NCBI GenBank assembly: GCA_016205975.1
Contig: JACQSK010000021.1
Location: forward strand, 106,593-170,592
Reading direction: 5' to 3'
Length of the DNA stretch: 64,000 nt
Source: Candidatus Uhrbacteria bacterium
GTDB taxonomy: Bacteria; Patescibacteriota; Patescibacteriia; UBA9934; GWF2-40-263
The position numbers were made by a program, and so were the translations under genes. Positions 20,579 through 64,000 of the stretch are shown in pieces (within the stretch, counting starts at the first letter, position 1; each line of letters begins with the position of its first letter). Under the pieces are notes generated by a model, which was given only the letters and a program-made list of their open reading frames with translations, was not told the origin of the DNA and searched no databases.

Positions 20579-21363
20579 CTTGGCCCTCTTGCGCGCGCGT
20601 GGGTGAACGGTTACTATACTAAGGCATGGGCGTTCTGTCAAGCCACCGCCGGTTCACGCCGTACAATGAGGTACGTTGGCGCGCAATCGTGATGGTCCTG
20701 TCATTCAGACGACTTACGTACCAGGCGATGATGGAGGGCAGATGACCCCGAAGAAAGCTGCTGCGCATCGCAAGAAGGCGGCCTCGCTAGTTGATCGTCA
20801 CGGTCGTCGTTTTCGAGGGGAAAAGAACTTCAAACGGCGTACGGATGCCCTTCCTGAACACGTGGATCCCTGGGGTGTGCACAGCAACAGGGAGACGCAA
20901 GCGGTCCCCCGCCGTCGAGCAGCGAAGCCTGCCGAGCGCGAGGAACCCGGCAAGGAGAAGTGAGCAAGGCGAGCAGTGCTTTGGGTGCTCGTGGACCAGA
21001 CGTGCATGGGCACGGTTTGACACTCCACAAGGCATGGAGGGGAGTCGATTGCGCGAATCAGGCGCCGGATGAGATGGTGCGCTGACCCCGTCGAGGTCTA
21101 CGACGCGATCACCCGCGGCGCGTTCCCGCCGAACCCGTCCTGGATGTGCCCCCGGTGCGAGTACCGGCGGGCGTGCAGGGGCGCGATCGCGATGAAAGCT
21201 GCGGCGTGAACGAAAACGACCCACTCCCGGGACGCGGGGGTGGGTTTTCGATTCAGAAGAGGTGCGTGTTTCACCGGTGAAACAGGAGTACCTGCATCCG
21301 GCGGAGGCGGCACGCATGCCTGGTGACGGGCCTCTCCCCCGGCTTACGCCATCCACCGCGACC

Positions 21364-24322: not shown

Positions 24323-25255
24323 CTACGCCCCCATCCGCGCCGAGAGCCACGGTAGCCGCCCGATGGCGTCCCGGAGCAGCGCCTCGTCCCCGTGCAGGTA
24401 GCGGGCGGTAGTGGCGAGCGAGGCGTGGTTCAAGGACTGCCGGATGATCTCGGTCGCCACCCCGACGCGCAAGAGCGCCGTCGCGTGCGCGTGGCGCAAG
24501 AGGTGGGGATGGAGGCGCACCGCGAGGCCGGCCCTTTCCCCGAGCCGCGCGAGCCGGAGCTGGATGGCCCGGGTCGTGAGCCGGTAAACGACCGGCGAGC
24601 TGGCTGCCGACGTGAATCCGCGCGGATTTACACGGCTCGGGAACAGCGACCCGTCGTCCCGGCCCCGGACCTCGATCCACGCGCGCACGACCTCCGCGGC
24701 GCACGGGTGGAGGACCACGTCGGTCCGGCCCCCGCCCTTGCGGGTGGCGCCCCGCAGGTGGCCGGTCGCGAAGTCGACCTGGGCAACGTCAAGACCGGCC
24801 AGCTCGGCGACGCGCAGGCCGGTGTAGAAGAAGAGGAGGAGGATCGTGGTGTCCCGGGCCCGTCGCCAGGACGGGGCTTCCGACGCGAGCACCCCGAGCA
24901 ACCGCTCGACGTCGGCGACGCCCGGGGCGGCGATCACGGACCTGGGCACCCGGGCGCGGGAGATCCCCGTGGTGGGGTCCGCGGCGAGCACCCGCTCGCG
25001 CACGAGCCACGCGCACAGCCCGCGGACGATCACCAGCCGGCGGTTGCGGGTGGACGGCGCGAGCAGCGTCCCGTCCGCCTGGCGGGTGACGAACGCGGCG
25101 AGGGCCTCCGGTTCGAGGGGAATGGCGCGACGCACGAGGAGCCCCAGCTCCTCGCGGTAGCCGGCGACGGTGGTCTCCCCCAGCCGCCGGTCGTCGGCGA
25201 GGTGGCGCAGGTAGCGGGCGAGCAGGTCGAGAGTGAGAAGGACGGGGGTAGGCAT
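24323..25255 (-). CDS. tyrosine recombinase, XerC/XerD-like
   Basis: N-terminal SAM-like domain (TTVAGYREEL). C-terminal catalytic region HLLRHAHATALL ... LGHASLATTARYLH with the conserved R/H/R/Y pattern. 310 aa. Confidence 0.7.
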   Translation of the reverse strand: MPTPVLLTLDLLARYLRHLADDRRLGETTVAGYREELGLLVRRAIPLEPEALAAFVTRQADGTLLAPSTRNRRLVIVRGLCAWLVRERVLAADPTTGISRARVPRSVIAAPGVADVERLLGVLASEAPSWRRARDTTILLLFFYTGLRVAELAGLDVAQVDFATGHLRGATRKGGGRTDVVLHPCAAEVVRAWIEVRGRDDGSLFPSRVNPRGFTSAASSPVVYRLTTRAIQLRLARLGERAGLAVRLHPHLLRHAHATALLRVGVATEIIRQSLNHASLATTARYLHGDEALLRDAIGRLPWLSARMGA

Positions 25256-25618
25256 GGTGGGCGGCACGTCTTTCAAGGGGATCGGAACTTCGCAAAACCT
25301 ACGCGAGGGCGAAAAGAGGAGGTCCCCGTGCTGGGACCTCTCGTTGGCGTTCCGGTCTTCTGGGGTTGCTCCGCTTCCTGGCCGACGGTGGCCGCGACCG
25401 GATGCTCCTATGCTCGCGGTGTGCACAGGATGCGCGGGCTGCCTTGCTCCCGTCTGACCTGACGCCGCCGGCGAGGAGGCCGCCCGACGGGATAGCGTCG
25501 TCGGCGGGGAGTGGCGAGCCCCGTTCAACGCGCGCCCCGCACGTCACCCGTCTGCAGGACGGACGGGTTGTCGGCGCCGATGGTCTTCCACTTCTGATAC
25601 TCTCTTGCGTGAGAGGAT

Positions 25619-47551: not shown

Positions 47552-48751
47552 CTATCGAGGCGAGCGGTGATTTGCCGAACGCGAGATCCCCGCCTTCGCC
47601 ATCACCTCCGCCTTGTGGGCGTCGGTGGTGTGCGCGTAGATCTCGTCCAGCATGCGCCCCTCGGTCCAGCCGCCGAGCTCCATGAGCGTGCGCCGATCGA
47701 CACCGGCGATCGCGAGCCGCGTCGCCCAGGTGTGGCGGAGACCGTGCGGGTGCATCGGGGGGAGGCCCGCGCGCTTGCAGGCGCGGCGCAGCGCGATGCC
47801 GAAGTCCTGGCGGGGCCGCGTGGGCGCGGTCGGGGAGGGGAAGACCCACCCGTGGGTAGGAGCGCCGAGTGCCACGTGACGGCGCCTGAGCTCGTCGGCG
47901 AGCTCGGGCGTCATCGGGATGGCGCGGTCATGCCGGGTTTTCACCTGGAACCGGATCTCCGGCTTCGCCCGGACCAGCATCGTGCCGTGCGGACCGACGT
48001 CCCACAGCACGTCTTCCCAGCCGCGCGAGAGGATCTCTCCCTTGCGCATGCCGAGGTTCAACGCCATCAGCACCGCGAGGTACGTGAGCGGGTCGCGCGG
48101 GATCGGGGGCTTCCCTCGCGTGACGACGTGAGGCTGTTCGCGCAGCGGCCCGACGGCGTCCAGGAGTCGTTCGCACTCCTCCGTGGAGAAGAAGCGATGA
48201 GCCCGACGATCGTTGTTCTTGATCCTTGGCATCTTGGGCAGGTGCGAGAGCACGCCGCTGTCGACCGCGTGGACGAGCGCGCCGCGAAGCCAGGCCAGCT
48301 CGATGATGATCGTCTTGCTCTTGCGCCCAAGAGCCCGCCGGGCGGTGACGTACCCGTCGATCGCGACGTAGTCGAGCGCGGAGAGCACGGTGTCGCCCAG
48401 CACCGGCTTCAACGCGTTCGCCGAGGTCTGCGCGCTCGTCGCGGTCTTCGGCGCCTTGTCGCGCCGGACCACCGGCAGGTAGACCTCGTCGAGGTAGCGC
48501 GCGAGCGTGTAGCCCGCGGGCTCAGCCCTCGTCGAGGAGCCACGCTCGGTACGCGGCGGCTCCACGGACTTCCCGGTCACGAGTTTCCCCTCGAACACCG
48601 TGAGCGCGTCCTTCGCCGCGGTCCTCGGGATGAACCCGAGCCCCCGGGTGCGGGTCTTGCCCGTTCCCGGGTCGCGCCACTGGATCGCGAAGTAGGGTTC
48701 CGTCTTGCCGCTGGCGCGGTTCACGCGCTTCACCTCGGTCAGCCATGCCAT
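47552..48751 (-). CDS. int: phage-type tyrosine integrase
   Basis: N-terminal arm-binding-like MAWLTEVKRVNRASGKTEPYFAIQWRDPGTGKTRTRG. C-terminal HGLRHTWATRLAIAGV...LGGWTEGRMLDEIYAHT. Lies next to the tRNA-like site. Confidence 0.7.
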   Translation of the reverse strand: MAWLTEVKRVNRASGKTEPYFAIQWRDPGTGKTRTRGLGFIPRTAAKDALTVFEGKLVTGKSVEPPRTERGSSTRAEPAGYTLARYLDEVYLPVVRRDKAPKTATSAQTSANALKPVLGDTVLSALDYVAIDGYVTARRALGRKSKTIIIELAWLRGALVHAVDSGVLSHLPKMPRIKNNDRRAHRFFSTEECERLLDAVGPLREQPHVVTRGKPPIPRDPLTYLAVLMALNLGMRKGEILSRGWEDVLWDVGPHGTMLVRAKPEIRFQVKTRHDRAIPMTPELADELRRRHVALGAPTHGWVFPSPTAPTRPRQDFGIALRRACKRAGLPPMHPHGLRHTWATRLAIAGVDRRTLMELGGWTEGRMLDEIYAHTTDAHKAEVMAKAGISRSANHRSPR

Positions 48752-49211
48752 CGTCTCTCTCCTTCCCGGCCGCGAGCACCGCGACCAGTCGTTCCCGGTG
48801 AATGCGCCACGCCCGGCCCGCCCGGACGGCGGCGCCGTCGAGCTGCCCCTCGGCGAGCAGCCGGCGGAGCAGCCGCTCCGACACCTGGAGGTGCGCGGCC
48901 GCCTCCTCCACGCTGAGCCAGTCGGACCGGCTCTCCCCGGGAGCGTACTGCGCGGACGGTGGAGCGGGGGAGGGGGGCGAGCGCTCCGCCGGCGACCCAC
49001 CGGTCGCTCCCAGGGTCGCGAGCACGTCCCCCCACCGGTAGACGGTAGACCCCGCGATCTCCCCGGCGGGAGCGACCGTCGCGACCAGCCACGCCTGTGC
49101 GCCGGGGCCGGGGCACGGGAGCGCCTCGGCCGCCTCCTGCGCGGACAGGAGCGACGTGGGCGCGAGCGACGCGCGCCACATCCGTCGCTGGAACGCGGAG
49201 AGCGCGCTCAT
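48752..49211 (-). CDS. excisionase/HTH-like DNA-binding protein (boundaries uncertain; frame runs on into the integrase gene)
   Basis: WLSVEEAAAHLQVSERLLRRLLAEGQLDGAAVRAGRAWRIHRERL is an Xis/MerR-like HTH just upstream of int. The ORF has no stop until 48522. Confidence 0.3.
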
Positions 49212-51171: not shown

Positions 51172-52128
51172 TCATGGCCGTTCCCCGGCCCTGAAAGACC
51201 CTTCCTGCACGCTCCCAGGATCCGCACCTGCACGAGATCCTGGACCCACCAGGCCGTTCCCACCGTGGGAACGGTCCGTCGGAACGGTTTCCACGAGGCA
51301 AGACGGCGCAAGGCGCGCGCGCTCGGTGCCGTCCTGGGTGACGACCCTCGGGGTGAGCCAGGCGGTCGGCGCGAGGATGTCCCGGTCGGTCAGCTCGCTG
51401 GCCACGGCGAAGGAGACGAGCCCCTCGGGAAGGCCCGCCTCCCAGGCCGCGAGCGCAAGGCGATTGCGCCTCCGGGCGGTGGGGACGGTGACGGCGACGC
51501 GCCAGTTCGAGGTACCCAGGAGCGGCGCGCCCGCGCTCCGGAGCGCGGCGTACGCGAGCGCCTTGTGCGCGAGCCAGCTCGGGGACTCGGTGCCGAGGTC
51601 CACTTCGAAGGCGACGGCGACCTGGCCGGCCCCCGCGGAGAGCAGGGCGACCGCGTCGGGCACGAGCCGAGCGTTCGGCAGCGCGCGCCGGAGTTCCCCC
51701 TCGAACAGGAAGCGTGCGAGCCGCCAGGCGCGCGAGCGACCGCACGCGACCGAGAGCGCGACGTAGAGGTCGACCTGCCCGTCGTGGTGGGCGAGGTTCA
51801 CGCGCTCGACCCCGTCGCGCACGCGGTAGTCCCCGGCCTCGCCGCCGAGGGCCGCCGCCAAGACCGGCCGCGCCGCGGGCGCGAGCGTGACGCGGTTGGG
51901 CCCGTTCAATCCCTCGGGGAGGTGCACGGTCACGAGCCCCAGGTCGCGCAGGACGCGCAGGCGCCGACGCGCCATGGGCACGCTCATCTGCACGCCGCGC
52001 GCGACCTGGTCGATGGTGACCGGCTGCGCGCGCTCGACGAGCGTGAGCACGAGGGTGTCGCGCACGGTCCGGCGCGCCCCGCCCGGGTCGCGACGCGCGG
52101 TGCGGCGGCTCGCCTCAGCGGGCATCAT
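51172..52128 (-). CDS. replication-relaxation (Replic_Relax) family protein
   Basis: N-terminal winged HTH (TLVLTLVERAQPVTIDQVARGV ... RRLRVLRDLGLV). Overall similarity to mobile-element replication-relaxation proteins, assessed from memory. Confidence 0.5.
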   Translation of the reverse strand: MMPAEASRRTARRDPGGARRTVRDTLVLTLVERAQPVTIDQVARGVQMSVPMARRRLRVLRDLGLVTVHLPEGLNGPNRVTLAPAARPVLAAALGGEAGDYRVRDGVERVNLAHHDGQVDLYVALSVACGRSRAWRLARFLFEGELRRALPNARLVPDAVALLSAGAGQVAVAFEVDLGTESPSWLAHKALAYAALRSAGAPLLGTSNWRVAVTVPTARRRNRLALAAWEAGLPEGLVSFAVASELTDRDILAPTAWLTPRVVTQDGTERARLAPSCLVETVPTDRSHGGNGLVGPGSRAGADPGSVQEGSFRAGERP

Positions 52129-54541: not shown

Positions 54542-54897
54542 GGCCACGGCTCCGGGCACTCGAGCATGCGGCGGTATGCCCACGGAGTGTCGGCGGACGC
54601 GCAGATCTCCTCCTTGTCCAGGCCGGGGTTGCGCTCGCGCTCCGCCGCGACCGCTCGTCGCGCCGCGCGCTCCGCGATGGCCTCGACTTCCTCCACCGAG
54701 GGCCCGGGGACGTAGGACACGACCGTCGGCGCGGGCGGGTCCGCCGCCTTGGCGCGCGCCACGACGACGGATCCGGCCTGTCCGGGCGCGGCCTCCCGCG
54801 CACAACCCGTTCGCACGAGGAGTATGCCCGCGATGCCGGCGGCGATCGCGCCCAGGGAGAGGAGGGTGAGGGCGTCAACGAGACGGCGAAGGTCCAT
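54538..54897 (-). CDS. small TM protein
   Basis: MDLRRLVDALTLLSLGAIAAGIAGILLV. Translationally coupled to its neighbours. Confidence 0.35.
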   Translation of the reverse strand: MDLRRLVDALTLLSLGAIAAGIAGILLVRTGCAREAAPGQAGSVVVARAKAADPPAPTVVSYVPGPSVEEVEAIAERAARRAVAAERERNPGLDKEEICASADTPWAYRRMLECPEPWP

Positions 54898-55504
54898 GGT
54901 GGCCTCCGGGGGAGCGAGGAAGCACGAAGAACGGGACGGGGGCGTCGAGCGCGGAGAAACCGTCGGACTCGACGGGCTGGAGCACGCCGGAGCGGGGGCC
55001 GAGGTACGCCCCCGTGCCCTGGCCGATGGGCAGGCTGGGGTCGATGACAACTCCTACGGAGCTGGCTGCGGGGAACGTGGCCTGGGTCGCCTCGTCGGTA
55101 CGGGAGAAGCGGGTGCCGTAGCCAGGGTGGGTGTGCCACCAGCCGACGACCTCGGCGATGGGCCAGCCCCACCGGAGATCCTCCATGAGCGCGGCCATCT
55201 CCTCGACGCCCGCGAAGACGTGGGCGTGGCCGGCGTCGGCGCGCACGGCGCGCACCGCGCCGGTGACCAGGGTGTAGGGGCCGTCTGCGTCCTCGCACGC
55301 CCGCCCGGCGAGGAGTCCCATCGTCTCGCGCGGCACGGCCGCCCGCGCCCAGGCGACCAGGTCGTCCAGGACGGCCTCCGACAGGTAGACGGCGACTCCC
55401 AGCGCGTCGCCGAACCGCGACCAGCCGGGCTCCTCCGGGGCAGGCGCGGGCCGGTAGAGAGGAACGCATTCGCGCACCCCGCGGACCACGAGGCGGGTGC
55501 TCAT
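54875..55504 (-). CDS. JAB/MPN (JAMM) metallopeptidase-domain protein
   Basis: WWHTHPGYGTRFSRTDE matches H-x-H-x7-S-x2-D. Upstream Glu (RETMGLLAG). Start overlaps the E2 stop (ATGA). Confidence 0.6.
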   Translation of the reverse strand: MSTRLVVRGVRECVPLYRPAPAPEEPGWSRFGDALGVAVYLSEAVLDDLVAWARAAVPRETMGLLAGRACEDADGPYTLVTGAVRAVRADAGHAHVFAGVEEMAALMEDLRWGWPIAEVVGWWHTHPGYGTRFSRTDEATQATFPAASSVGVVIDPSLPIGQGTGAYLGPRSGVLQPVESDGFSALDAPVPFFVLPRSPGGHHGPSPSR

Positions 55505-56148
55505 GCGCGCCCCCGGACGCGCAGGCGCGGCGAGGGGGTGGGCGGCCAGGGCGAGAGCACCCGCAGCGCGGGCCGCGACCGGGCCACGCCGTGAGTGAAC
55601 TCGACCGGCATCGCCGGGTAGACGAGGTCGCGGTGCAAGGAGTGCCCGCGCAGCGTCTCCTGCCAGTAGCGGATGGCGTCGGGCTGGTAGCCCCAGTCGC
55701 TGTCCGAGTACGGCTCGTCGAAGTTGAGGATGCGCGCCACCTGCACGAGCAGGTGGGCAAGCAGGACCTGCCCGCCGGCGTCGCCCCAGTCCGAGCCGAT
55801 GCACACCACCCCCGAGGCCGGCTGGACACGGTGGTTCCACGGCAAGGGCGGCAGGACGGTGACCGCGGGGGGCGTGAACGGGTAGTTGCCGCCCGCGAGC
55901 AGGTCGAAGGCGACCACCGTCGCCGCCTGGTACCGGCCGGGCCCCGCGAGCGTCCGGAAGTCGTACCGTGCCAAGACGTAGGGGGGCGCGGCCCCGGGCG
56001 TGCCGGGAGCGACGGGATCGCGTGCCGAGAGCAGGGCCGGGATGCTCGCGAACCCTGCGACCTGCAACCACGGGGCGGCGAGCCGCGCCACGACCTCGAA
56101 GTCGAAGCGCAGCCGGCGCTCCCGCTCTCCTGGCGCGAGGCGTCGCAT
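55501..56148 (-). CDS. E2-like (UBC-fold) ubiquitin-conjugating enzyme homologue
   Basis: PLPWNHRVQPASGVVCIGSDWG resembles the UBC active-site HPN(I/V)xxxGxICL stretch. Start overlaps the Ubl stop (TGATG). Confidence 0.5.
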   Translation of the reverse strand: MRRLAPGERERRLRFDFEVVARLAAPWLQVAGFASIPALLSARDPVAPGTPGAAPPYVLARYDFRTLAGPGRYQAATVVAFDLLAGGNYPFTPPAVTVLPPLPWNHRVQPASGVVCIGSDWGDAGGQVLLAHLLVQVARILNFDEPYSDSDWGYQPDAIRYWQETLRGHSLHRDLVYPAMPVEFTHGVARSRPALRVLSPWPPTPSPRLRVRGRA

Positions 56149-56408
56149 CAGCGGGCGCCCTCCATGGCCTGGACCACCTCGACGACGTCCCCGTCGGCCA
56201 CGCCCGCGGCACGCAAGGTGCGACCCGGGAGGATCGGGAGGTGTGTGCGGCCGTGGACCAGGCCGTACTCCCGCCGGTCGGTGACGGGCAAGAGCGCGTC
56301 GCAGCGGACCAGCTCGTGGATGGTCTCCAGGGCGGTCAGCTCGGGGTCGACGTCGACGTCGAGCGCGGAAGGGGTGCGGGGACAGGCGAACTTGACGTTC
56401 ATGGTCAT
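56148..56408 (-). CDS. small beta-grasp (ubiquitin-like) protein, 86 aa, C-terminus ...VVQAMEGAR (no terminal Gly-Gly)
   Basis: GAGGAGGA RBS. ATG overlaps the E1 stop (ATGA). ...GRTLRAAGVADGDVVEVV resembles ThiS/MoaD C-terminal strands. Confidence 0.45.
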   Translation of the reverse strand: MTMNVKFACPRTPSALDVDVDPELTALETIHELVRCDALLPVTDRREYGLVHGRTHLPILPGRTLRAAGVADGDVVEVVQAMEGAR

Positions 56409-57667
56409 TCCTCCTCGGAATGGGGGGTGAGAGAGAGGCGGGGAAAGACGCCGGGGACCGTGCCCGGGAGCTGCACGAGCGCACCGTCGGCACGGGCGAC
56501 CGCGCCCGGTCCCAGCCCGAGCCGGGGAAGCGGCACGTCCAGGAGCACGGCGTCCGAGGCCCGGAGAACCGAGCGGAGGTCGGGGAGGCCGGGCGCACTC
56601 CCCGGCGAGCACGAGTCTCCCGGGCACCGGGGCGCGGAGGTGACCGCGTACCGCGGCTGGTTCACGACCACGGGCCGCCCGCACCCCGCGCACGGGAGCG
56701 ACACGACGACCGGCTCGGACAGCTGGATCTCGCTGCAGGGGAGCCCCAGCCGCCGCAGCGCCTCGAACAGCTCGTACAGCGTCGCGGGCTCCCCGGGGAC
56801 GCGCGCCGCTTCCTCGCCGAAGGGGACGTGGTCGAGCCGGCAGTCCGGGTCGCTCACGAGCGTCGTGAGCACCGACCGCCCCGTGCGGATGTCGAGGTGC
56901 CAACGATGGCCGGCGAGCGGCACGTACCGGGGCAACAGCGCCGGGTCGGTCTCGAACCCGTCCGAGAGCAGGTGCGCGTGCGCGAACCCGATCGCCGCCT
57001 CGGCGACGAGCGCGCCGGCGACCTGGGCCGCGGACTGGATGGCCGGGGAGAAGCCGGCCGCCTCCGCCTGCCTGGCGTAGAGCGTGCACAGCCCGCGGGT
57101 GCTCGCGTCCCGGAGGGAGCGCCGGCCGCAGCCCCAGCACGGCTCGTCCGGGATCCCGGGGTGGTTCGCGATGACCGTGACCGCGAGCTGGGGGCCCTCG
57201 AACCCCGCCTCGACGAGCGGCAGCCGGGAGCGCCGGCACAGCTCGGAGAGGTACGCGCGCGTCTCGTTGCTGTCGACCGCGGAGATGAGCGCGTGCGGGT
57301 ACCACGGGCCCCGTGCGCCCGCGAGCAGGTCCCCGACCGCCTGCACCAGGCCCAGGTGGTGGTACGCCTCGGCGCCAGGGTGGGTCGCGGACCGCAAAAA
57401 ACCCTCGGCGACGGCCGGGGCCTTGGGGGCGTCCTTCTGGTAGAAGGGGCTCCGGGTGCGGTTGGACTCCTCGAAGGCGTCGGGGTCGACGACGATGAGC
57501 GTGCGGACGCCGGAGAGCGCGAGCGCGAGCGCGGCGTTCTGGCCGAGCGCACCGGCGCCCACCAGCGCGACCCGGGTGCCCGAGAGCACGTGCGGGTCGT
57601 ACCCGGCGAGCCGCTCGCGGGAGAGGAAAGAGGGATCAGTGACGGTGGCCGTCATTGGGCCCTCCAC
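56405..57667 (-). CDS. E1-like ThiF/MoeB-family adenylyltransferase with C-terminal Cys-rich (CxxC...C..C) region
   Basis: RVALVGAGALGQNAALALALSGVRTLIVVDPDAFEESN is a ThiF fold. C-terminal SLPCAGCGRPVV ... PRCPGDSCSPG. Confidence 0.65.
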   Translation of the reverse strand: MEGPMTATVTDPSFLSRERLAGYDPHVLSGTRVALVGAGALGQNAALALALSGVRTLIVVDPDAFEESNRTRSPFYQKDAPKAPAVAEGFLRSATHPGAEAYHHLGLVQAVGDLLAGARGPWYPHALISAVDSNETRAYLSELCRRSRLPLVEAGFEGPQLAVTVIANHPGIPDEPCWGCGRRSLRDASTRGLCTLYARQAEAAGFSPAIQSAAQVAGALVAEAAIGFAHAHLLSDGFETDPALLPRYVPLAGHRWHLDIRTGRSVLTTLVSDPDCRLDHVPFGEEAARVPGEPATLYELFEALRRLGLPCSEIQLSEPVVVSLPCAGCGRPVVVNQPRYAVTSAPRCPGDSCSPGSAPGLPDLRSVLRASDAVLLDVPLPRLGLGPGAVARADGALVQLPGTVPGVFPRLSLTPHSEEE

Positions 57668-58466
57668 AGGTCCAGCAGGTGGGGCCGGCCTCCACCCGCT
57701 CCCGCGAAACGACGAGCGGCGCGGCCGAGTGGGTTGCCGGCGGTGCGGCCGCGCGGGCGGTCGGCGTCGACGCTCTTCTCTCCGCGCGCGCGGGAGATCG
57801 CGCGGCCCAGTGCGGGGCCAAGCGCGGGGTTGGCGGTGCGGTTGGAGGGGTGGCCGACGGGGCCGCCTGGCGGGTGGCCGGCCTCGGGGCCGAGGAGGTG
57901 GCCGGCGTCGACACCCCTCGCTCTTCGCGCTCGGGAGTACCGCGCGGGGGCGAGAAGGCGCGGGCGGCCCACGCCTCCACTTCGCGCGTAAGCCACGCCT
58001 GCGCGGCGTTCAGGCCGTCGGCCGCCCCGGTGACGATCCACCGGGCGAGCAGGACGAGGAGGCCGAGGCCGCCGAGCGTCACGATGATCGGGTCGACGCC
58101 GGCGGACGGCGCCCAGCGGGTCCATGCCTCGTGGACCGCGGCGACCAGCACGCAGAGGCCGACCCGGCGGAGGAGCGCACGGAGGCCGGGAGGGAAGGCG
58201 CGGTACCGCTCCACGACGTGATCGAGGAGCTTCCCGGCCTCGCCGGCGACGACGAGCAGCAGGAAGCCGACCGGGACGGTGACGGCGAAAAGGGCGGCGG
58301 CCTCGATCGCCGCCTGCAAGTACGCGATGGGCGCGGCGGAGCCGGGGCAGCCCGGGAGGACCAGGAGCAACGGGGCGACGGCGCCGAGGCGAACCAGCCA
58401 TCCCGCGACGTCCAGGTCGCAAGGCGACCGGCCCCGGCGCCATGCGCGATCGCAGCCGGTGGTCAT
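57636..58466 (-). CDS. membrane protein with Pro/Ala/Thr-rich C-terminal tail
   Basis: Several TM helices. The stop overlaps the next gene. Confidence 0.35.
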   Translation of the reverse strand: MTTGCDRAWRRGRSPCDLDVAGWLVRLGAVAPLLLVLPGCPGSAAPIAYLQAAIEAAALFAVTVPVGFLLLVVAGEAGKLLDHVVERYRAFPPGLRALLRRVGLCVLVAAVHEAWTRWAPSAGVDPIIVTLGGLGLLVLLARWIVTGAADGLNAAQAWLTREVEAWAARAFSPPRGTPEREERGVSTPATSSAPRPATRQAAPSATPPTAPPTPRLAPHWAARSPARAERRASTPTARAAAPPATHSAAPLVVSRERVEAGPTCWTCGGPNDGHRH

Positions 58467-58636
58467 TCTCCACCCCCGTCGAGCGAGTTGCCGTCGTCGG
58501 AGTCGAAGCCGTCGAAGTCGAGGATGACGGTGTCGTTCTCGACGTCGTAGACCGGCTCGATGTTGCCCTCGGCCACCGCGGGACGGGTCGCCGCGGTGCC
58601 TTCCGAGACTCGGTTCGATGTCGCTCTTGACGTCAT
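58463..58636 (-). CDS. small acidic protein (about 57 aa)
   Basis: MTSRATSNRVSEG ... DFDGFDSDDGNSLDGGGE. Stop overlaps the next ATG. Below the ORF-track size cutoff. Coordinates +/-2. Confidence 0.2.
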   Translation of the reverse strand: MTSRATSNRVSEGTAATRPAVAEGNIEPVYDVENDTVILDFDGFDSDDGNSLDGGGE

Positions 58637-58739: not shown

Positions 58740-59891
58740 ATGCCCATTCGCAAGCCCGGCGCCGGCCCCTCCTCGCGGATCCCGCGCCGCAAGGTGCTGG
58801 AGGCCGCGCGTCGATTCTACCTGCACGGGGAGACCCAGACCGCGATCGCCGCGGACCTCGGGGTCTCGAACTCCTACTTGGCGCGGCTCTTGAAGGACGC
58901 GCGCGAGCAGGGCTGGGTGAAGATCATCGTGGACAGCGACCGGGAGACGGAACTCGCGGCGGCGCTCATGGCCAAGTACCCCCACCTCGTCCACTGCGAG
59001 GTGGTGCCGACCGGGAGTACGCCCGAGGACACGGCGCGGGCGATCGGGACGGCGATGGCGAACTGGTTCGACGAGTTGCTCGACCGGGACGAGGAGTCCG
59101 CCGACCCACAGGTTCGCAAGGTGGCGATCGGAGGCGCGTGGCCCCACCAGTTCATGGTCGACGCCGTGGTGCGCCGGCGGAACCGGGTCTCGGTCGGGCC
59201 CACCGCGCTCACGCCGTCACCGGCGAGGATGGACCGGTACACCGCCCCGGTGGTGGCCGCGAAGCTCGCGGACCGCCTGGGGGCGCTCGGGGCGGGCTCG
59301 GCCACGCCGCCGGGAAGCTCGCGGACCGGCTTCCTCTACTCCCCGACGTTCAAGCCGCCCCGCGACAGCTTGCCGGCGCTCCAACGGTTCTTCGAGGACA
59401 TCAAAAAAGACCCGGACTACCGGGCCATGCTGGACTTCTGGATGGACGTGGACGTGGCGTTCCTGAGCGTGGTCGCGCCGCAGTGGCGGTACTCGGACGT
59501 GCACGACCGGCTCTCGGCGCTAGGGCTCTCCACGCAGAATCTCATCGACCGCGGCGCGACGGCCGTGGTGGCGAACCGGTTCCTGGACGGCAACGGCCGA
59601 GACGTCCCGCTTGCCGAGGGAGTGCCGTCCTACGAGGTGGCGATGCCGACCGAGGCGATCCGGGCGGTGATGGAACGGCACGCCGCGAGCGGGGGGAGGC
59701 GCGGGTTCGTGGTGCTGGATGCTTGGGGGGAGCCTGGTGTCGGCGGGCGGACACTCTTGCAGGCGGGCGTAGTGAACATCCTGCTCTGCGATGCATCAAC
59801 GGGGGTTCAAATCGCTTCACCGCCGAGACCTGAGCACGTCCAAGCGCGGCCGTCTCCATCTACTCAATCTGATCTACCCCGTCGTCCCTAA
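58740..59891 (+). CDS. SorC/DeoR-like transcriptional regulator (N-terminal HTH + sugar-binding-like domain)
   Basis: TQTAIAADLGVSNSYLARLLKDAREQGWVKI is an HTH. Divergent from the E1/E2/JAB operon. C-terminal extent uncertain. Confidence 0.5.
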   Translation: MPIRKPGAGPSSRIPRRKVLEAARRFYLHGETQTAIAADLGVSNSYLARLLKDAREQGWVKIIVDSDRETELAAALMAKYPHLVHCEVVPTGSTPEDTARAIGTAMANWFDELLDRDEESADPQVRKVAIGGAWPHQFMVDAVVRRRNRVSVGPTALTPSPARMDRYTAPVVAAKLADRLGALGAGSATPPGSSRTGFLYSPTFKPPRDSLPALQRFFEDIKKDPDYRAMLDFWMDVDVAFLSVVAPQWRYSDVHDRLSALGLSTQNLIDRGATAVVANRFLDGNGRDVPLAEGVPSYEVAMPTEAIRAVMERHAASGGRRGFVVLDAWGEPGVGGRTLLQAGVVNILLCDASTGVQIASPPRPEHVQARPSPSTQSDLPRRP

Positions 59892-60759
59892 CCCAAGAGC
59901 ACCAAATGATGCGCACGAGCACGAGCCCAGATACCGTTGCCAGCGTGAACAGAACGATCGCGACTCCTTTTCCCTTGACCGCAAGAGCAGCCAGCCAGAC
60001 CAACAGTGCAGCAACGGCAACGGCAATCACTCCGACAACCAAGCAGATAAGAAAGACGATGCTCCAGAAGCCCTTTTTCAGCACGCCATAACCAGGCCAC
60101 TTCTTCTTTTGCTCTTCGGCGACTGCGTTGAAGGCGACAAAAAACAGCTCAAACCACCGTTCGACATCAGGGACCATCCACTCGTATATCTCCAGTGCAT
60201 GCACCCAACACCACCACCCCGCGGCCCCGAAGGCAAGCGAGAGCGAGGCCGTTGCGAACTCAAACCCCCCCCACGTTTCCATGCCGGGTGCCCTGGTCCT
60301 CTGTCTGACTGTGCGTGTAGTTCCGACATGAACGGCCGGTCGTGCAGGGGCGGGCTGGGACGCGGTCGCGGCGACAGAGCTCGGCGGCGGGGTCATCCTC
60401 ACGGCGGGCTCTTCGGTCGGGCTCGGAGGTCGCTTCATCCGCCAGACTTCCTCGAACGCGACCACCGCGTCCAACGCGCCGGCTTCCGTCGGCACGCGGC
60501 CATCATGCATCACGCGGTTCCGCACGAACGTCGCGGCTTGTAGGTCGTGCTCAAGGGTCGTCCCAAACACTTTTTCGGCGACGCGCTCCGCCCACGCCCA
60601 GAACGGCTCTGTACCGCCGTCGTCGGAGGCGCCCCGTTCGCATCCTGCCCTCTTCAGAGCCAGCTCGGCCTTGGTATACCCATCGAGGACTGCATGGCGG
60701 CGGTGATCCTCGTCGCCTAGTGTCCATTGTTTCAGCGTATGCCAGGCCGGCAAGCTCAT
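59860..60759 (-). CDS. HEPN-motif protein fused or linked to a C-terminal multi-TM domain
   Basis: VRNRVMHDG fits the Rx4-6H HEPN motif. Pro-rich linker. C-terminal TM helices in lower-GC (about 50%) DNA. May be two genes. Confidence 0.4.
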   Translation of the reverse strand: MSLPAWHTLKQWTLGDEDHRRHAVLDGYTKAELALKRAGCERGASDDGGTEPFWAWAERVAEKVFGTTLEHDLQAATFVRNRVMHDGRVPTEAGALDAVVAFEEVWRMKRPPSPTEEPAVRMTPPPSSVAATASQPAPARPAVHVGTTRTVRQRTRAPGMETWGGFEFATASLSLAFGAAGWWCWVHALEIYEWMVPDVERWFELFFVAFNAVAEEQKKKWPGYGVLKKGFWSIVFLICLVVGVIAVAVAALLVWLAALAVKGKGVAIVLFTLATVSGLVLVRIIWCSWVRDDGVDQIE

Positions 60760-61037
60760 CGTGGCTCTCGGTATCCCTCTCGGGTTGCTCGGTAGTCCAG
60801 CCAATCAGCCCGGCTGATGCCCGCAGCATCCATCACCAGGTGATTCCACTCGTAGATCATTTTTTCAAGTCGCGACAATGGAGCGGACACGTCGGGGCGC
60901 TCCCTCACGTCGTGGGGGATCTCGCTGAACGTGCTGATCGTCGTCTCGTGCAAATCGTAGATCCTCCGAGAAATATCGCGGAGTCGCTCCTTGGACGACT
61001 CCGGGCCAGGTCCGGACTCGTGTCGCGAAGTTGGCAT
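60756..61037 (-). CDS. hypothetical small protein upstream of the HEPN gene
   Basis: Stop overlaps the HEPN start. AT-rich promoter-like DNA upstream (61040-61100). Confidence 0.35.
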   Translation of the reverse strand: MPTSRHESGPGPESSKERLRDISRRIYDLHETTISTFSEIPHDVRERPDVSAPLSRLEKMIYEWNHLVMDAAGISRADWLDYRATREGYREPR

Positions 61038-61247
61038 ACAAGGTTGTTTAGATGTGAATTATTCTGAAGTAACTCTACCAAGCACGAGCCGGTGTTGTAA
61101 AGCGCAGACGGCCCCGCCACTGACGACCTGACTGGTGGGTTCTGTGGCACGGGCGAGCTTGCCGGAGCAGCAGCACCCATCATTGGACACCCCGACTCTA
61201 GCGTTGCTCGCACCGTCGAGGGCACAGCGAACGACGACGGGTTCAGC

Positions 61248-61463
61248 GTGGAGGGCGCCGAGGCCACGGACATCGAGCTCGACGCCGACGGCTACCCGGA
61301 CTGCCTCGTGGGCAGCGAGATCGACATCGAGCTGCTGATCGTCGACGGCGACTCCCTCCAGGGGCAGGCAATCCTCCGCACCGAGTCCTTCGACGAGGAC
61401 ACGTGCCCTGTGGCGCCCGAAACCTGCGACATCGTCATGGACATCGTCGCCGAGCGCCAGTAG
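61248..61463 (+). CDS. small acidic protein
   Basis: 71-aa ORF (DIELDADGYPDCLVGSEIDIELLIVDGD...). Weak evidence. Confidence 0.2.
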   Translation: MEGAEATDIELDADGYPDCLVGSEIDIELLIVDGDSLQGQAILRTESFDEDTCPVAPETCDIVMDIVAERQ

Positions 61464-61676
61464 CGCCACCGGAGCATAGGGTCGTCGGGCCCGGCGACGT
61501 CGAGACCTGCGGCGCGTGCGAGAGCGACGTGCGGAGGTGAACGGAGATCAGGACGGCCGGCTGCTGCGGCGCCCGCCGTTCGACCGCGAGACCCATGATC
61601 CCGGGCGTCCTGCCCTGGGCGGCGCTGGCAGGAGTGCCGGCGCCACGCGGCGATGCAGCCCACGTCGCCTCGGTAT

Positions 61677-62102
61677 CTACGCCCCTCGCAGGTACTCCAC
61701 GATGTCGTGTGCTCGGGCCTCGTAGAACGAAGCAGGCTGCCCCGGATTCACGCGCACCGTGAAGACAGAGAACCCTTGCCTCTCCAACGCGGTTATGAGG
61801 GGCGTGTAGAGCGACCCCGGCTCCTCTGGCGGGCGCGCTGCGCAGACCAAGTAGGTGAAGTGCCCGTACCGAGCGATGAAGGCATCAGTACTGGCTACGC
61901 GCCTCTCCTCAAGCGTCTGCGAGAGAACGGCACCGTTGGGAACTCGCTCTTCCAGCGATTGCGAGAGCACGGCGCCCGTCCGCGCATCGAGCAGAAACCG
62001 CCGAGCGCGCGATGAAATCCGCAGCAATGGCTTCAGGAACTCCCTAAGCGTCCTGCTTTTCCCAGAGTGGTGGGGGCCCACCACGATGGCCGCTCGCTTC
62101 AT
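61677..62102 (-). CDS. small P-loop NTPase-like protein
   Basis: Walker A GPHHSGKS. Internal duplication VLSQSLEERV / VLSQTLEERR. GAGGAG RBS. Confidence 0.4.
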   Translation of the reverse strand: MKRAAIVVGPHHSGKSRTLREFLKPLLRISSRARRFLLDARTGAVLSQSLEERVPNGAVLSQTLEERRVASTDAFIARYGHFTYLVCAARPPEEPGSLYTPLITALERQGFSVFTVRVNPGQPASFYEARAHDIVEYLRGA

Positions 62103-62541
62103 GGGTCTCGCTCCTCGCTCTCGCATCTTGGTGTCCGTATCATGGCCGGCCGCGCAGCACGCCCGCCGTCTCCCACATGGCGTCACTCGGGGCGACAAGG
62201 CGACGCGCGGGCTCATTCAGGTGGGCGTCCTCCTCCGCCTTTCGGTGCTCGACCACGTTGTCATCGCCAGCGACACCTATGCGTCTCTGGCGGCGAGCGT
62301 CATGGACGAGGCGCCGTACCCGGTGCTCGGGGTGGCGTGAACTCAGACCTCTCCGTCTCGGTAGAGGTTTTTCATTTCCAGAGTCTCGGCAGGCGCTCAT
62401 CGCGCGCGCTCCTCTCGAAGCTTCGCAGGACACGCTCGGTCGTCTGGAGGCCGCCATGATCGTGAAGCTCCCATCCAGCGTCGTGTCCTACGGCCTCCCG
62501 ACTACCAAGCGCACACCGCGACGGCAGGGCTCGCGCTCCTG

Positions 62542-63612
62542 CTATCGTCCCCGAAAAGCGTCCCCGTCCTCGTCGAAGTACTCGGTCTCCTCGTCGTCCT
62601 CGTCCTCACCCCCGTCGTCGTCGAGATCGAGGAACTCGTGGATCAGGTACATCTTGAGGCGACCGGAGCGACTCTGGAGTTCCGATCCGAAGAAGGACAC
62701 CTCAACACGCGGGCCCTTCGGGTCGGTCGCGAACCGTTGCAGGCTCGCGGCGACCTGGGCGATTTCGTTGCTCCCGCGGGCCTTCTCGTCGATCACGAAT
62801 GGGATCGGTCGCTGCTTGCCTGGAACGTAGACCCGGCCCTTGAATGTATTGGCGTTGTAGCTGGTGATCACTCCGTCATCCACGCGGATCCCGTCTACGC
62901 GATTCGTGTGCTGGAGGTACTCGGCGGTCGCGGCGGTCAACTCCTGACCGATCAGGAGTTGTTGTCCTTCCACCTGCGCGAGGAGTCGAGCCCGCTCGGC
63001 GGTCCCGGTCTCGAAGATCGGCCTGTGGACGTTCAGCACCGCCACCTCGACCTTCTCGGCGATGCTGTCGATCTGGGCGTCCCGGAGGACATGGGGCATC
63101 GCCGTGTCGGGAAGCCCGGCGTCACGCAGCTTCTGCTTGTATTCCTGGTAGCTCGCCAACAGCGGCTTTTCATAGTCCACGTCGAAGCCGAGGGTCGTCT
63201 TGATCACGGCGTGGTAGGCGGAGAAGAGGACGTGGCCGAGCGGGTTGTCCCTCCCCGTTGTGGTGAGCGCGAACGCCGCGCCCACGACCCCCGCAGTCCC
63301 GGTGCCGACGAGTCCCAGCACGGCCACCACCAGCTCCCAACTCCCCGGAGTCGGCGGTCGAGCGCGGATCGAGGCTCCTTTCAAGGCTGGAGCCTGCGTG
63401 ATGATTTCCCCGTTGAGGACGGCGTGTGTGGTGATGGCGAGGGTCCGGTGGAGCCCCTGCATCGCGACGGACACGTCGTAGAGGTCGAGTTCCTGTCGGG
63501 AGGCGTCGGCCCCGTCGAAGCTCAACTTCAACCATAGGAGCGGGCGGTTCGACTGTATGATTGCCACGGCGCGACTCCTCAGATCAGATGCCACGCGACG
63601 TAGCAGGGTCAC
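62542..63612 (-). CDS. hypothetical protein with poly-acidic C-terminal tail
   Basis: 356-aa ORF ending DDDGGEDEDDEETEYFDEDGD. Confidence 0.4.
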   Translation of the reverse strand: MTLLRRVASDLRSRAVAIIQSNRPLLWLKLSFDGADASRQELDLYDVSVAMQGLHRTLAITTHAVLNGEIITQAPALKGASIRARPPTPGSWELVVAVLGLVGTGTAGVVGAAFALTTTGRDNPLGHVLFSAYHAVIKTTLGFDVDYEKPLLASYQEYKQKLRDAGLPDTAMPHVLRDAQIDSIAEKVEVAVLNVHRPIFETGTAERARLLAQVEGQQLLIGQELTAATAEYLQHTNRVDGIRVDDGVITSYNANTFKGRVYVPGKQRPIPFVIDEKARGSNEIAQVAASLQRFATDPKGPRVEVSFFGSELQSRSGRLKMYLIHEFLDLDDDGGEDEDDEETEYFDEDGDAFRGR

Positions 63613-64000
63613 ATCCTGACGGCCACGGAGCCACCCTGACGTCGGCGGGAGGGAGTCCGATTTTGTCCACTCCGCGTCGCGGGCCTCCGGACACGGACTC
63701 GTCGAACAGTGTCACGTCCAGTTGACGGACTGGAACCGATGCCCTCCCGGCGGCCCACCTCAGGGTGCGCGCCGAGCGCAAGCATATTCGGATCGAGGTC
63801 GTGCGGAGGGCGCCCGCACGCTACGTTGTCTTTCGGAGTTCACATGATGCTGCGCAAGAAATGGATGCTCCGCCCCGTCGCCCACTGCCCCGGCGGTGGC
63901 TGACGACGACCAAGCGTCTCCCGACAGCAAGGACCCCTCCCGCTCGCGCAGGAAGGGCTCGTTGTCGTCCACGCCGACGAGGATGAGCGGCGCCCGCGCG

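Follow-up and report, generated by a model that had tools for sequence, protein, structure and literature searches.

Bacterial membrane-associated HEPN proteins fall into three groups, one of which combines an N-terminal HEPN domain with a following pair of transmembrane (TM) helices (Anantharaman et al. 2013, PMC3710099). In Csx28 from CRISPR-Cas systems of type VI-B2, a HEPN-like four-helix bundle is joined to a TM helix, and the protein assembles as an octamer into a depolarising pore (bioRxiv 10.1101/2021.11.02.466367). Here, these proteins, along with type II toxin-antitoxin (TA) and two-gene abortive-infection (Abi) modules, are compared with a locus at positions 59860-62102 of a 64,000-nt stretch of DNA (the window) on contig JACQSK010000021.1 (197,571 bp) of assembly GCA_016205975.1, a metagenome-assembled genome (MAG) labelled Candidatus Uhrbacteria. 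The locus contains three minus-strand open reading frames (ORFs), designated A, B and C in this report. The small gene B and the membrane protein gene A overlap as a two-gene pair, which we tentatively interpret as a TA, Abi or exclusion type module with A as a membrane-anchored effector restrained by B.

Like the membrane-associated HEPN proteins, A has a ~110-aa N-terminal domain that is predicted to be all-helical and cytoplasmic, with the sequence R-N-x3-H at a helix end, followed by TM helices. Unlike them, A is devoid of both the C-terminal Zn-ribbon and the WP-signature TM helix and carries its two to four TM helices behind a long Pro-rich linker; nor was similarity to DUF4145, Abi2/Swt1 or other HEPN families detected at the sequence or profile level. 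With Csx28, which is a precedent for membrane perturbation instead of RNA cleavage, A shares the linkage of membrane helices to a small helical domain that bears a divergent Rx4-6H. The single TM helix of Csx28 is N-terminal and its soluble domain C-terminal, whereas in A the order is reversed and the TM helices are more numerous; in addition, Csx28 depends on Cas13b, which was not searched for here, and a PADLOC scan revealed no similarity of A to Csx28.

The B-A pair resembles type II TA systems (MNT-HEPN, RnlA-RnlB) and two-gene Abi modules in that its genes are co-directional, overlap by 4 nt (ATGA) with the small gene first, and reside on mobile DNA. Unlike type II TA systems, A and B match no toxin or antitoxin family, and B is without a recognisable DNA-binding or MNT domain; as a 299-aa membrane protein, A also far exceeds the usual type II toxin in size. 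The features of the locus and its surroundings are compiled in Table 1.

Table 1. Positions (window coordinates) of the features of the A/B/C locus and of neighbouring genes.
Feature	Position (nt)	Strand	Remarks
Gene A	59860-60759	-	299 aa from ATG; MBI4438192.1, GenBank hypothetical protein
Strongly hydrophobic helical hairpin of A	59890-60078	-	residues ~228-258 and 263-290, joined by KGKG turn
RNRVMH, candidate Rx4H motif of A	60505-60522	-	A residues 80-85
Gene B	60756-61037	-	93 aa; without entry in NCBI (PGAP) annotation
Sigma-70-like promoter match	61072-61101	-	TTTACA, 18 nt, TG-TAGAGT (TGTAGAGT); consensus match only
Gene C	61677-62102	-	141 aa, basic; MBI4438194.1, GenBank hypothetical protein
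Walker A of C, GPHHSGKS	62055-62078	-	C residues 9-16, after hydrophobic strand
Repeated 11-residue peptide of C, GAVLSQ[S/T]LEER	61944-61976 and 61902-61934	-	two copies
Acidic 71-aa ORF	61248-61463	+	MBI4438193.1; annotated in NCBI and Logan; divergent from B
radC remnant (JAB-domain C-terminus)	62101-62340	+	abuts start of C
DUF7946/DUF7947 protein	62542-63567	-	PHROG 13337 match at E=1e-24
SorC/DeoR-like helix-turn-helix gene	58740-59891	convergent to A	3' end overlaps that of A by 32 nt
276-aa and 57-aa ORFs	upstream of E1, operon span to 58636	-	small or hydrophobic
ThiF-type E1	56405-57667	-	family match
YukD-like Ubl	56148-56405	-	family match
216-aa ORF in E2 position	55501-56151	-	no family match
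JAB/MPN peptidase	54875-55504	-	family match
Replic_Relax protein	~51172-52128	-	family match
Integrase (tyrosine recombinase, Phage_integrase)	47552-49000	-	family match
Second Phage_integrase gene	24323-25528	-	family match

Coding potential and architecture of A and B

ORF A is too long to be explained by chance, with a probability of ~1e-4 for 299 stop-free codons at 62% GC, and its frame stays open up to a TTG at 60804. For six-frame codon scoring, a codon model trained on confident genes of the window was used, and A, B and C each scored best in the frame given in Table 1, B only weakly so. The score of A was 0.17-0.20 bits/codon and the highest in its annotated frame, and the GC content of the third, first and second codon positions (GC3, GC1 and GC2) followed the order GC3>GC1>GC2 along the whole length of the gene.

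The product of A is a 299-aa membrane protein composed of a soluble helical N-terminal domain (residues ~1-110), a linker (~110-165) and a C-terminal membrane region (166-296). Single-sequence modelling of A with AlphaFold2 (AF2), which gave a low-confidence model with a predicted local distance difference test (pLDDT) value of 53.5, placed helices of the N-terminal domain at residues 30-37, 53-65, 69-85 and 92-109. AF2 and hydropathy analysis revealed the linker to be disordered, basic and rich in Pro, Ser, Thr and Ala, and the helices at 163-194 and 199-220 to be weakly hydrophobic and Trp/Phe-rich. In total, the C-terminal part contains two to four TM helices. Its hairpin reached a Kyte-Doolittle maximum (19 residues) of 3.27, with mean hydropathies of 2.25 and 1.73 for the two helices, which AF2 placed at 224-260 and 264-296 as the best-predicted part of the model (pLDDT 64-72). 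The multi-TM C-terminal region that had been assigned to A in an initial annotation of the window was thus recovered, in the form of a hydrophobic stretch at 224-290 (two helices) and two weaker helices within 163-220. A KKK...KK cluster precedes the hairpin, and therefore an N-in topology is proposed according to the positive-inside rule, by which the N-terminal domain of A would lie on the cytoplasmic side.

At the junction of the two genes, the TGA of B overlaps the ATG of A as ATGA (60756-60759), in agreement with the coupled 93-aa upstream gene proposed initially; judged from this overlap, B and A are predicted to be translationally coupled, with the small gene first. The B product is hydrophilic and charged, with an isoelectric point (pI) of 6.1 and a grand average of hydropathy (GRAVY) of -1.0. 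Its codon score was near zero (0.01-0.07 bits/codon), making B the weakest coding case among the three genes; a 93-codon ORF has a chance of ~6% per position, and B, which constitutes a singleton cluster, was called as a gene in only 2 of 4 identical Logan contigs. No Shine-Dalgarno sequence is visible before its ATG. The sigma-70-like promoter match precedes the start codon of B by ~35 nt and falls within the intergenic stretch of lowest GC (58.6% for 61038-61247); no other promoter-like site was found on either strand of 59500-64000, with 0.4 sites expected from shuffled sequences. The exact ATGA junction and this sole match in 4.5 kb favour B as a gene. An Rx4H sequence within B itself (RIYDLH) was rejected as a meaningful motif, as such a motif is present in 82% of B shuffles.

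An exhaustive phmmer search of 1.84 billion representative proteins (E<=1e-3) with A retrieved nothing but a fragment of the query, 140 aa long, and the searches with B and C each returned the query alone. A word-indexed search with the full-length, TM-rich A had missed A's own cluster; a null result of such a search on hydrophobic proteins does not equal absence of homologues, and it was not counted, with the exhaustive HMMER search being used instead. With tblastn, no counterpart of A, B, C or the 71-aa ORF was found on plasmids, and none of A in phages or IMG/VR contigs; scans of B against Pfam, NCBIfam, PADLOC and PHROGs retrieved no family. Neighbouring genes likewise form singleton clusters at 90% identity; unlike A, B and C, however, they have matches in Pfam. 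With respect to these searches, A, B and C appear to be orphans confined to one poorly sampled lineage. Homologues that are conserved core genes had been named initially as a result that would count against the interpretation; the three genes are not conserved core genes, and no homologues were found at all.

Proposed function of the B-A pair

The genes A, B and C belong to the cargo of an integrated mobile element in which conflict genes abound, and at least one such integrated element spans the right-hand third of the window. Best supported is the structural description of B-A as an overlapping, translationally coupled pair for a small soluble protein and a polytopic membrane protein of predicted N-in topology. 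From this anatomy and the mobile, conflict-rich context, a TA, Abi or exclusion role of B-A is considered plausible. In the proposed mechanism, which is regarded as the most likely one, B-A would be a cassette of two genes under a promoter of its own, forming part of the cargo of the element or defence island, in which the ATGA overlap would couple translation such that soluble B is made along with A. The latter would reside in the inner membrane, with the helical N-terminal domain facing the cytoplasm and the C-terminal bundle of two to four TM helices serving as the anchor. B may bind the cytoplasmic domain of A and keep A inactive, or it may serve as a sensor; upon loss or displacement of B, A would act at the membrane, either through its hydrophobic hairpin, through the RNxxxH-bearing helical domain, or through both.

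Of the Abi/TA-like arrangement described in the initial annotation, the co-directional, ATGA-overlapping pair on mobile DNA was retained; homology of A or B to a toxin, antitoxin or Abi family was not detected. Should B-A be a working toxin/Abi cassette, a sequence-orphan membrane-effector family would be added to the defence repertoire, and such modules would be hidden among the singleton genes of poorly sampled lineages.

Several results weigh against a toxin or Abi module. Neither A nor B gave a profile match to toxin, antitoxin, Abi or HEPN families in Pfam, NCBIfam, PADLOC and PHROGs, and as no search found a homologue for any of the three genes, there is no support for conservation of the pair or its motif, or for a conserved linkage to defence genes. 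Sequence identity among all five assemblies of the locus is 100%, which leaves no polymorphism to show selection. Furthermore, the coding statistics of B are weak and gene callers are inconsistent on it, the structure models of A and C are of low confidence and yielded no significant fold match, and the nearby radC remnant shows that the tract is partly decaying.

A could also be a non-toxic, lineage-specific membrane protein of the element, acting in entry or superinfection exclusion or in membrane-anchored signalling or regulation, with B as an accessory subunit and no TA logic involved. We consider this somewhat unlikely; no similarity to known exclusion, anti-sigma or signalling families was detected, partner genes for such roles were not identified nearby, and the evidence is as thin as that for a toxin.

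It is unlikely that the ORFs, B especially and perhaps C, are non-functional, that is, decaying remnants or chance ORFs in an eroding, rearranged part of an old mobile element. Such an origin would suit the truncated, degenerate radC abutting C, the near-zero codon score of B at a ~6% chance per position for 93 codons, the omission of B by PGAP and in 2 of 4 Logan gene calls, the shortness of C for a P-loop NTPase and the absence of a clear Walker B from it, and the lack of homologues of all three genes. It is opposed by the 299 codons of A (P ~1e-4) with their coherent hydrophobic helices and frame-specific codon bias, by the repeat peptide of C, which is kept over six synonymous changes and points to selection on the protein, and by the precise ATGA junction and upstream promoter match of B-A, which would be unexpected of chance ORFs.

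The candidate Rx4H motif of A

A HEPN Rx4-6H motif had been ascribed to A in the initial annotation. The motif itself is present as RNRVMH; it closes the predicted helix 69-85 and is followed by a loop (86-91) and the helix 92-109 in the AF2 model (pLDDT ~53). In HEPN domains, Rx4-6H is placed at the end of helix 3 or the start of the loop to helix 4 (PMC3710099). The position of RNRVMH fits this placement rule, but this is weak evidence of HEPN membership, as the motif is common by chance: when A or its N-terminal domain was shuffled, the loose form Rx4-6H arose in 72-75% of cases; the stricter form R[NHQD]xxxH arose in 3.7-5.5% of shuffles.

The HEPN family profile searches that had been proposed for A retrieved no match in any of the four libraries. 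Pfam returned 0 families for full-length A at E<=1 and 0 for the isolated N-terminal domain at E<=10, and none of the HEPN families sought (HEPN, DUF4145, Abi_2/Swt1, AbiU2, AbiV, MAE_28990 and others) gave a significant profile match; NCBIfam and PADLOC returned 0 families, and PHROGs a single, non-significant match of unknown function (E=0.44). When the N-terminal domain was compared with PDB sequences by phmmer, designed ankyrins were retrieved at E ~1, with no chain better than E=0.7. Foldseek with the low-confidence model of A gave a best match at E=0.83, and a HEPN chain was found at rank 35 (E=8.1). Because the profile, PDB and fold tests fail or are uninformative, the HEPN assignment is regarded as a lead and not as a finding. 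Absence of a predicted HEPN fold had been named initially as the result that would count against the assignment, and on this point the model of A, too poor for a judgement, neither upholds nor excludes it. Beyond the motif, HEPN identity of A is not supported, there being no HEPN profile match even at E<=10; a short Rx4-6H motif along with TM helices is insufficient for a HEPN call.

With these results, it is improbable that A is a membrane-tethered HEPN ribonuclease toxin with RNRVMH as its catalytic motif (R80/H85) and B as its antitoxin, comparable to TM-associated HEPN proteins and HEPN TA pairs. Consistent with such a toxin are the common R-N-x3-H form of the motif, which 3.7-5.5% of shuffles contain, its location at a helix end with a short loop and a further helix behind it as in HEPN domains, the approximately four helices predicted in the 110-aa domain, the existence of TM-linked HEPN proteins as a known class (PMC3710099), and the small, translationally coupled gene upstream of A. 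Very improbable is the further-reaching proposal that B-A represents an unseen family of self-contained, CRISPR-independent, membrane-anchored conflict effectors, in which a highly diverged HEPN-like RNxxxH domain of A, controlled by the co-translated B, would signal to a depolarising TM hairpin as in Csx28.

Gene C, base composition and neighbouring genes

Gene C lies 640 bp from the B-A pair on its upstream side, with the plus-strand 71-aa ORF in between. Because of this distance and the intervening opposite-strand gene, A, B and C do not form one operon, and C is a transcription unit separate from B-A. Thus, the ORFs and coordinates given in the initial annotation stand; its statement that C follows the pair does not, and neither does its grouping of the three genes into a single islet.

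C is preceded by a GAGGAG ribosome-binding site. Its Walker A motif together with the preceding strand reads AAIVVGPHHSGKS at residues 4-16. A Walker A at any position was found in 0.46% of C shuffles, and one with the preceding strand and the N-terminal position in 0 of 20000, by which the motif appears to be genuine and non-random. The two copies of the repeated peptide agree in 10 of 11 residues, with their DNA being identical at 26/42 positions and with six synonymous codon differences; the peptide has been kept despite this synonymous divergence, and selection on the protein is therefore suggested. Both parts of the earlier description of C, as a 141-aa Walker-A protein with an internal duplication, are borne out by GPHHSGKS and the doubled 11-residue peptide.

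Like minimal P-loop NTPases and the N-termini of AAA_16- and AAA_22-like proteins, C has a hydrophobic strand and GxxxxGKS at the extreme N-terminus and a predicted beta/alpha alternation. Unlike P-loop NTPases, it comprises only 141 aa, its Pfam scores are sub-threshold, no clear Walker B was found (the sole candidate being FLLD at residues 36-39), the duplicated peptide is inserted after FLLD, and the predicted fold is unmatched to P-loop structures. Specifically, AAA_16 scored 20.2 bits (cutoff 32.6) and AAA_22 17.5 bits (cutoff 27), both below the gathering thresholds. The single-sequence AF2 model of C showed alternating beta and alpha elements at a pLDDT of 60.9 and a predicted template-modelling score (pTM) of 0.55; Foldseek with this low-confidence model gave a best E=0.06 and mostly ferredoxin-like (ACT/CutA), not P-loop, folds. 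C is best described as a putative minimal or derived P-loop-type protein that is probably selectively maintained.

The GC content of 59860-62102 is 63.4%, compared with 74.8% for 49-59 kb. The previously stated range of 50-58% applies to 200-bp sub-windows only and not to the whole span: values of 51-57% are limited to sub-windows at 59.85-60.25 kb and 60.85-61.15 kb, which cover the TM-coding part of A as well as the 5' end and the promoter of B. In the 64-kb window, 33% of equal-size windows are as low in GC or lower, and a tract of 62-68% GC extends past the end of the window for 10 kb or more; owing to this continuation, there is no discrete 2.2-kb islet, and the segment taken for one forms the margin of a far larger accessory region within a mobile element. 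The GC3 values of A (0.71), B (0.69) and C (0.77) are also below those of adjacent element genes (0.88-0.94), so that the dip is not merely an effect of hydrophobic codons. Searches for tandem and dispersed repeats found no meaningful direct or inverted repeats flanking 59860-62102, no tRNA gene was found near it, and an Rfam scan of 59500-62700 revealed no RNA family. Of the horizontally acquired islet envisaged initially, the deviant GC3 and the mobility genes nearby hold, and the discrete 2.2-kb boundaries do not.

The mobile-DNA setting was confirmed by the integrase, the Replic_Relax protein and the E1/Ubl/E2/JAB operon of Table 1, and by Mrr, PD-(D/E)XK nuclease and RadC genes in the vicinity. 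Past the window end, Mrr/NA-iREase1, PD-(D/E)XK/Cas4-like, trypsin-like protease, protein kinase and RadC genes are present. The operon at 54875-58636, a complete operon of the ubiquitin-like conjugation type, resembles the antiphage Bil operons in having separate Ubl, E2-position, E1 and JAB genes, and differs in this from Bub (10.1101/2024.11.21.623953).

The radC remnant is truncated N-terminally; it matches Pfam RadC at E=2e-4 with 21.7 bits (cutoff 22.1) over profile positions 85-118 of 121, and across 26 aa it shares 50% of its residues with the product of an intact radC located a few kb past the window end. Its HxH and S..D motifs seem to be lost, as judged by eye. The remnant and the intact copy beyond the window suggest a rearrangement or insertion scar. 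An 86-aa Arg-rich minus-strand ORF called in Logan (62140-62400) was dismissed as spurious, the coding signal being on the plus strand over the radC remnant.

The 71-aa ORF has the strongest coding signal of the region (GC3 0.93-0.95; 0.64-0.78 bits/codon). Its product is hyperacidic, with 20 Asp and Glu versus 2 Lys and Arg residues, a pI of 4.05 and a net charge of -18.5, a charge like that of small DNA-mimic or anti-restriction proteins; no match was found in Pfam, NCBIfam, PADLOC or PHROGs, as with the plasmids above. For the DUF7946/DUF7947 protein, relatives of 35-39% identity were found in Sphingomonas and Planktotalea MAGs. The gene of the Sphingomonas relative (39%) occurs singly, flanked by chemotaxis-receptor-like, TyrS and RecG genes; a link of this protein to C/B/A was dropped on account of its standing alone among housekeeping genes there and of the intervening radC remnant on the other strand.

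The window has 67% GC, with up to 77% per kb, in a MAG labelled Candidatus Uhrbacteria (locus tags HY631_045xx), and among its products are a MopE/FG-GAP/PKD repeat protein of 1035 aa, a protein with a caspase domain and a GGDEF-EAL protein of the response-regulator type. Such GC and gene content are atypical of a small-genome bacterium of the candidate phyla radiation (CPR), and for this reason the contig may be mis-binned.

A 161-bp inverted duplicate of 89% identity was found at 21090-21249 and, in opposite orientation, at ~65.35-65.51 kb (window coordinates). It holds the Cys-rich 3' end of a PD-(D/E)XK/Cas4-like gene together with the terminator hairpin of that gene. At 21.1 kb, only an orphan 3' remnant is present, located where GC jumps from ~60% to ~70%. 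The duplicate possibly indicates an inversion, or else a site at which two related elements join.

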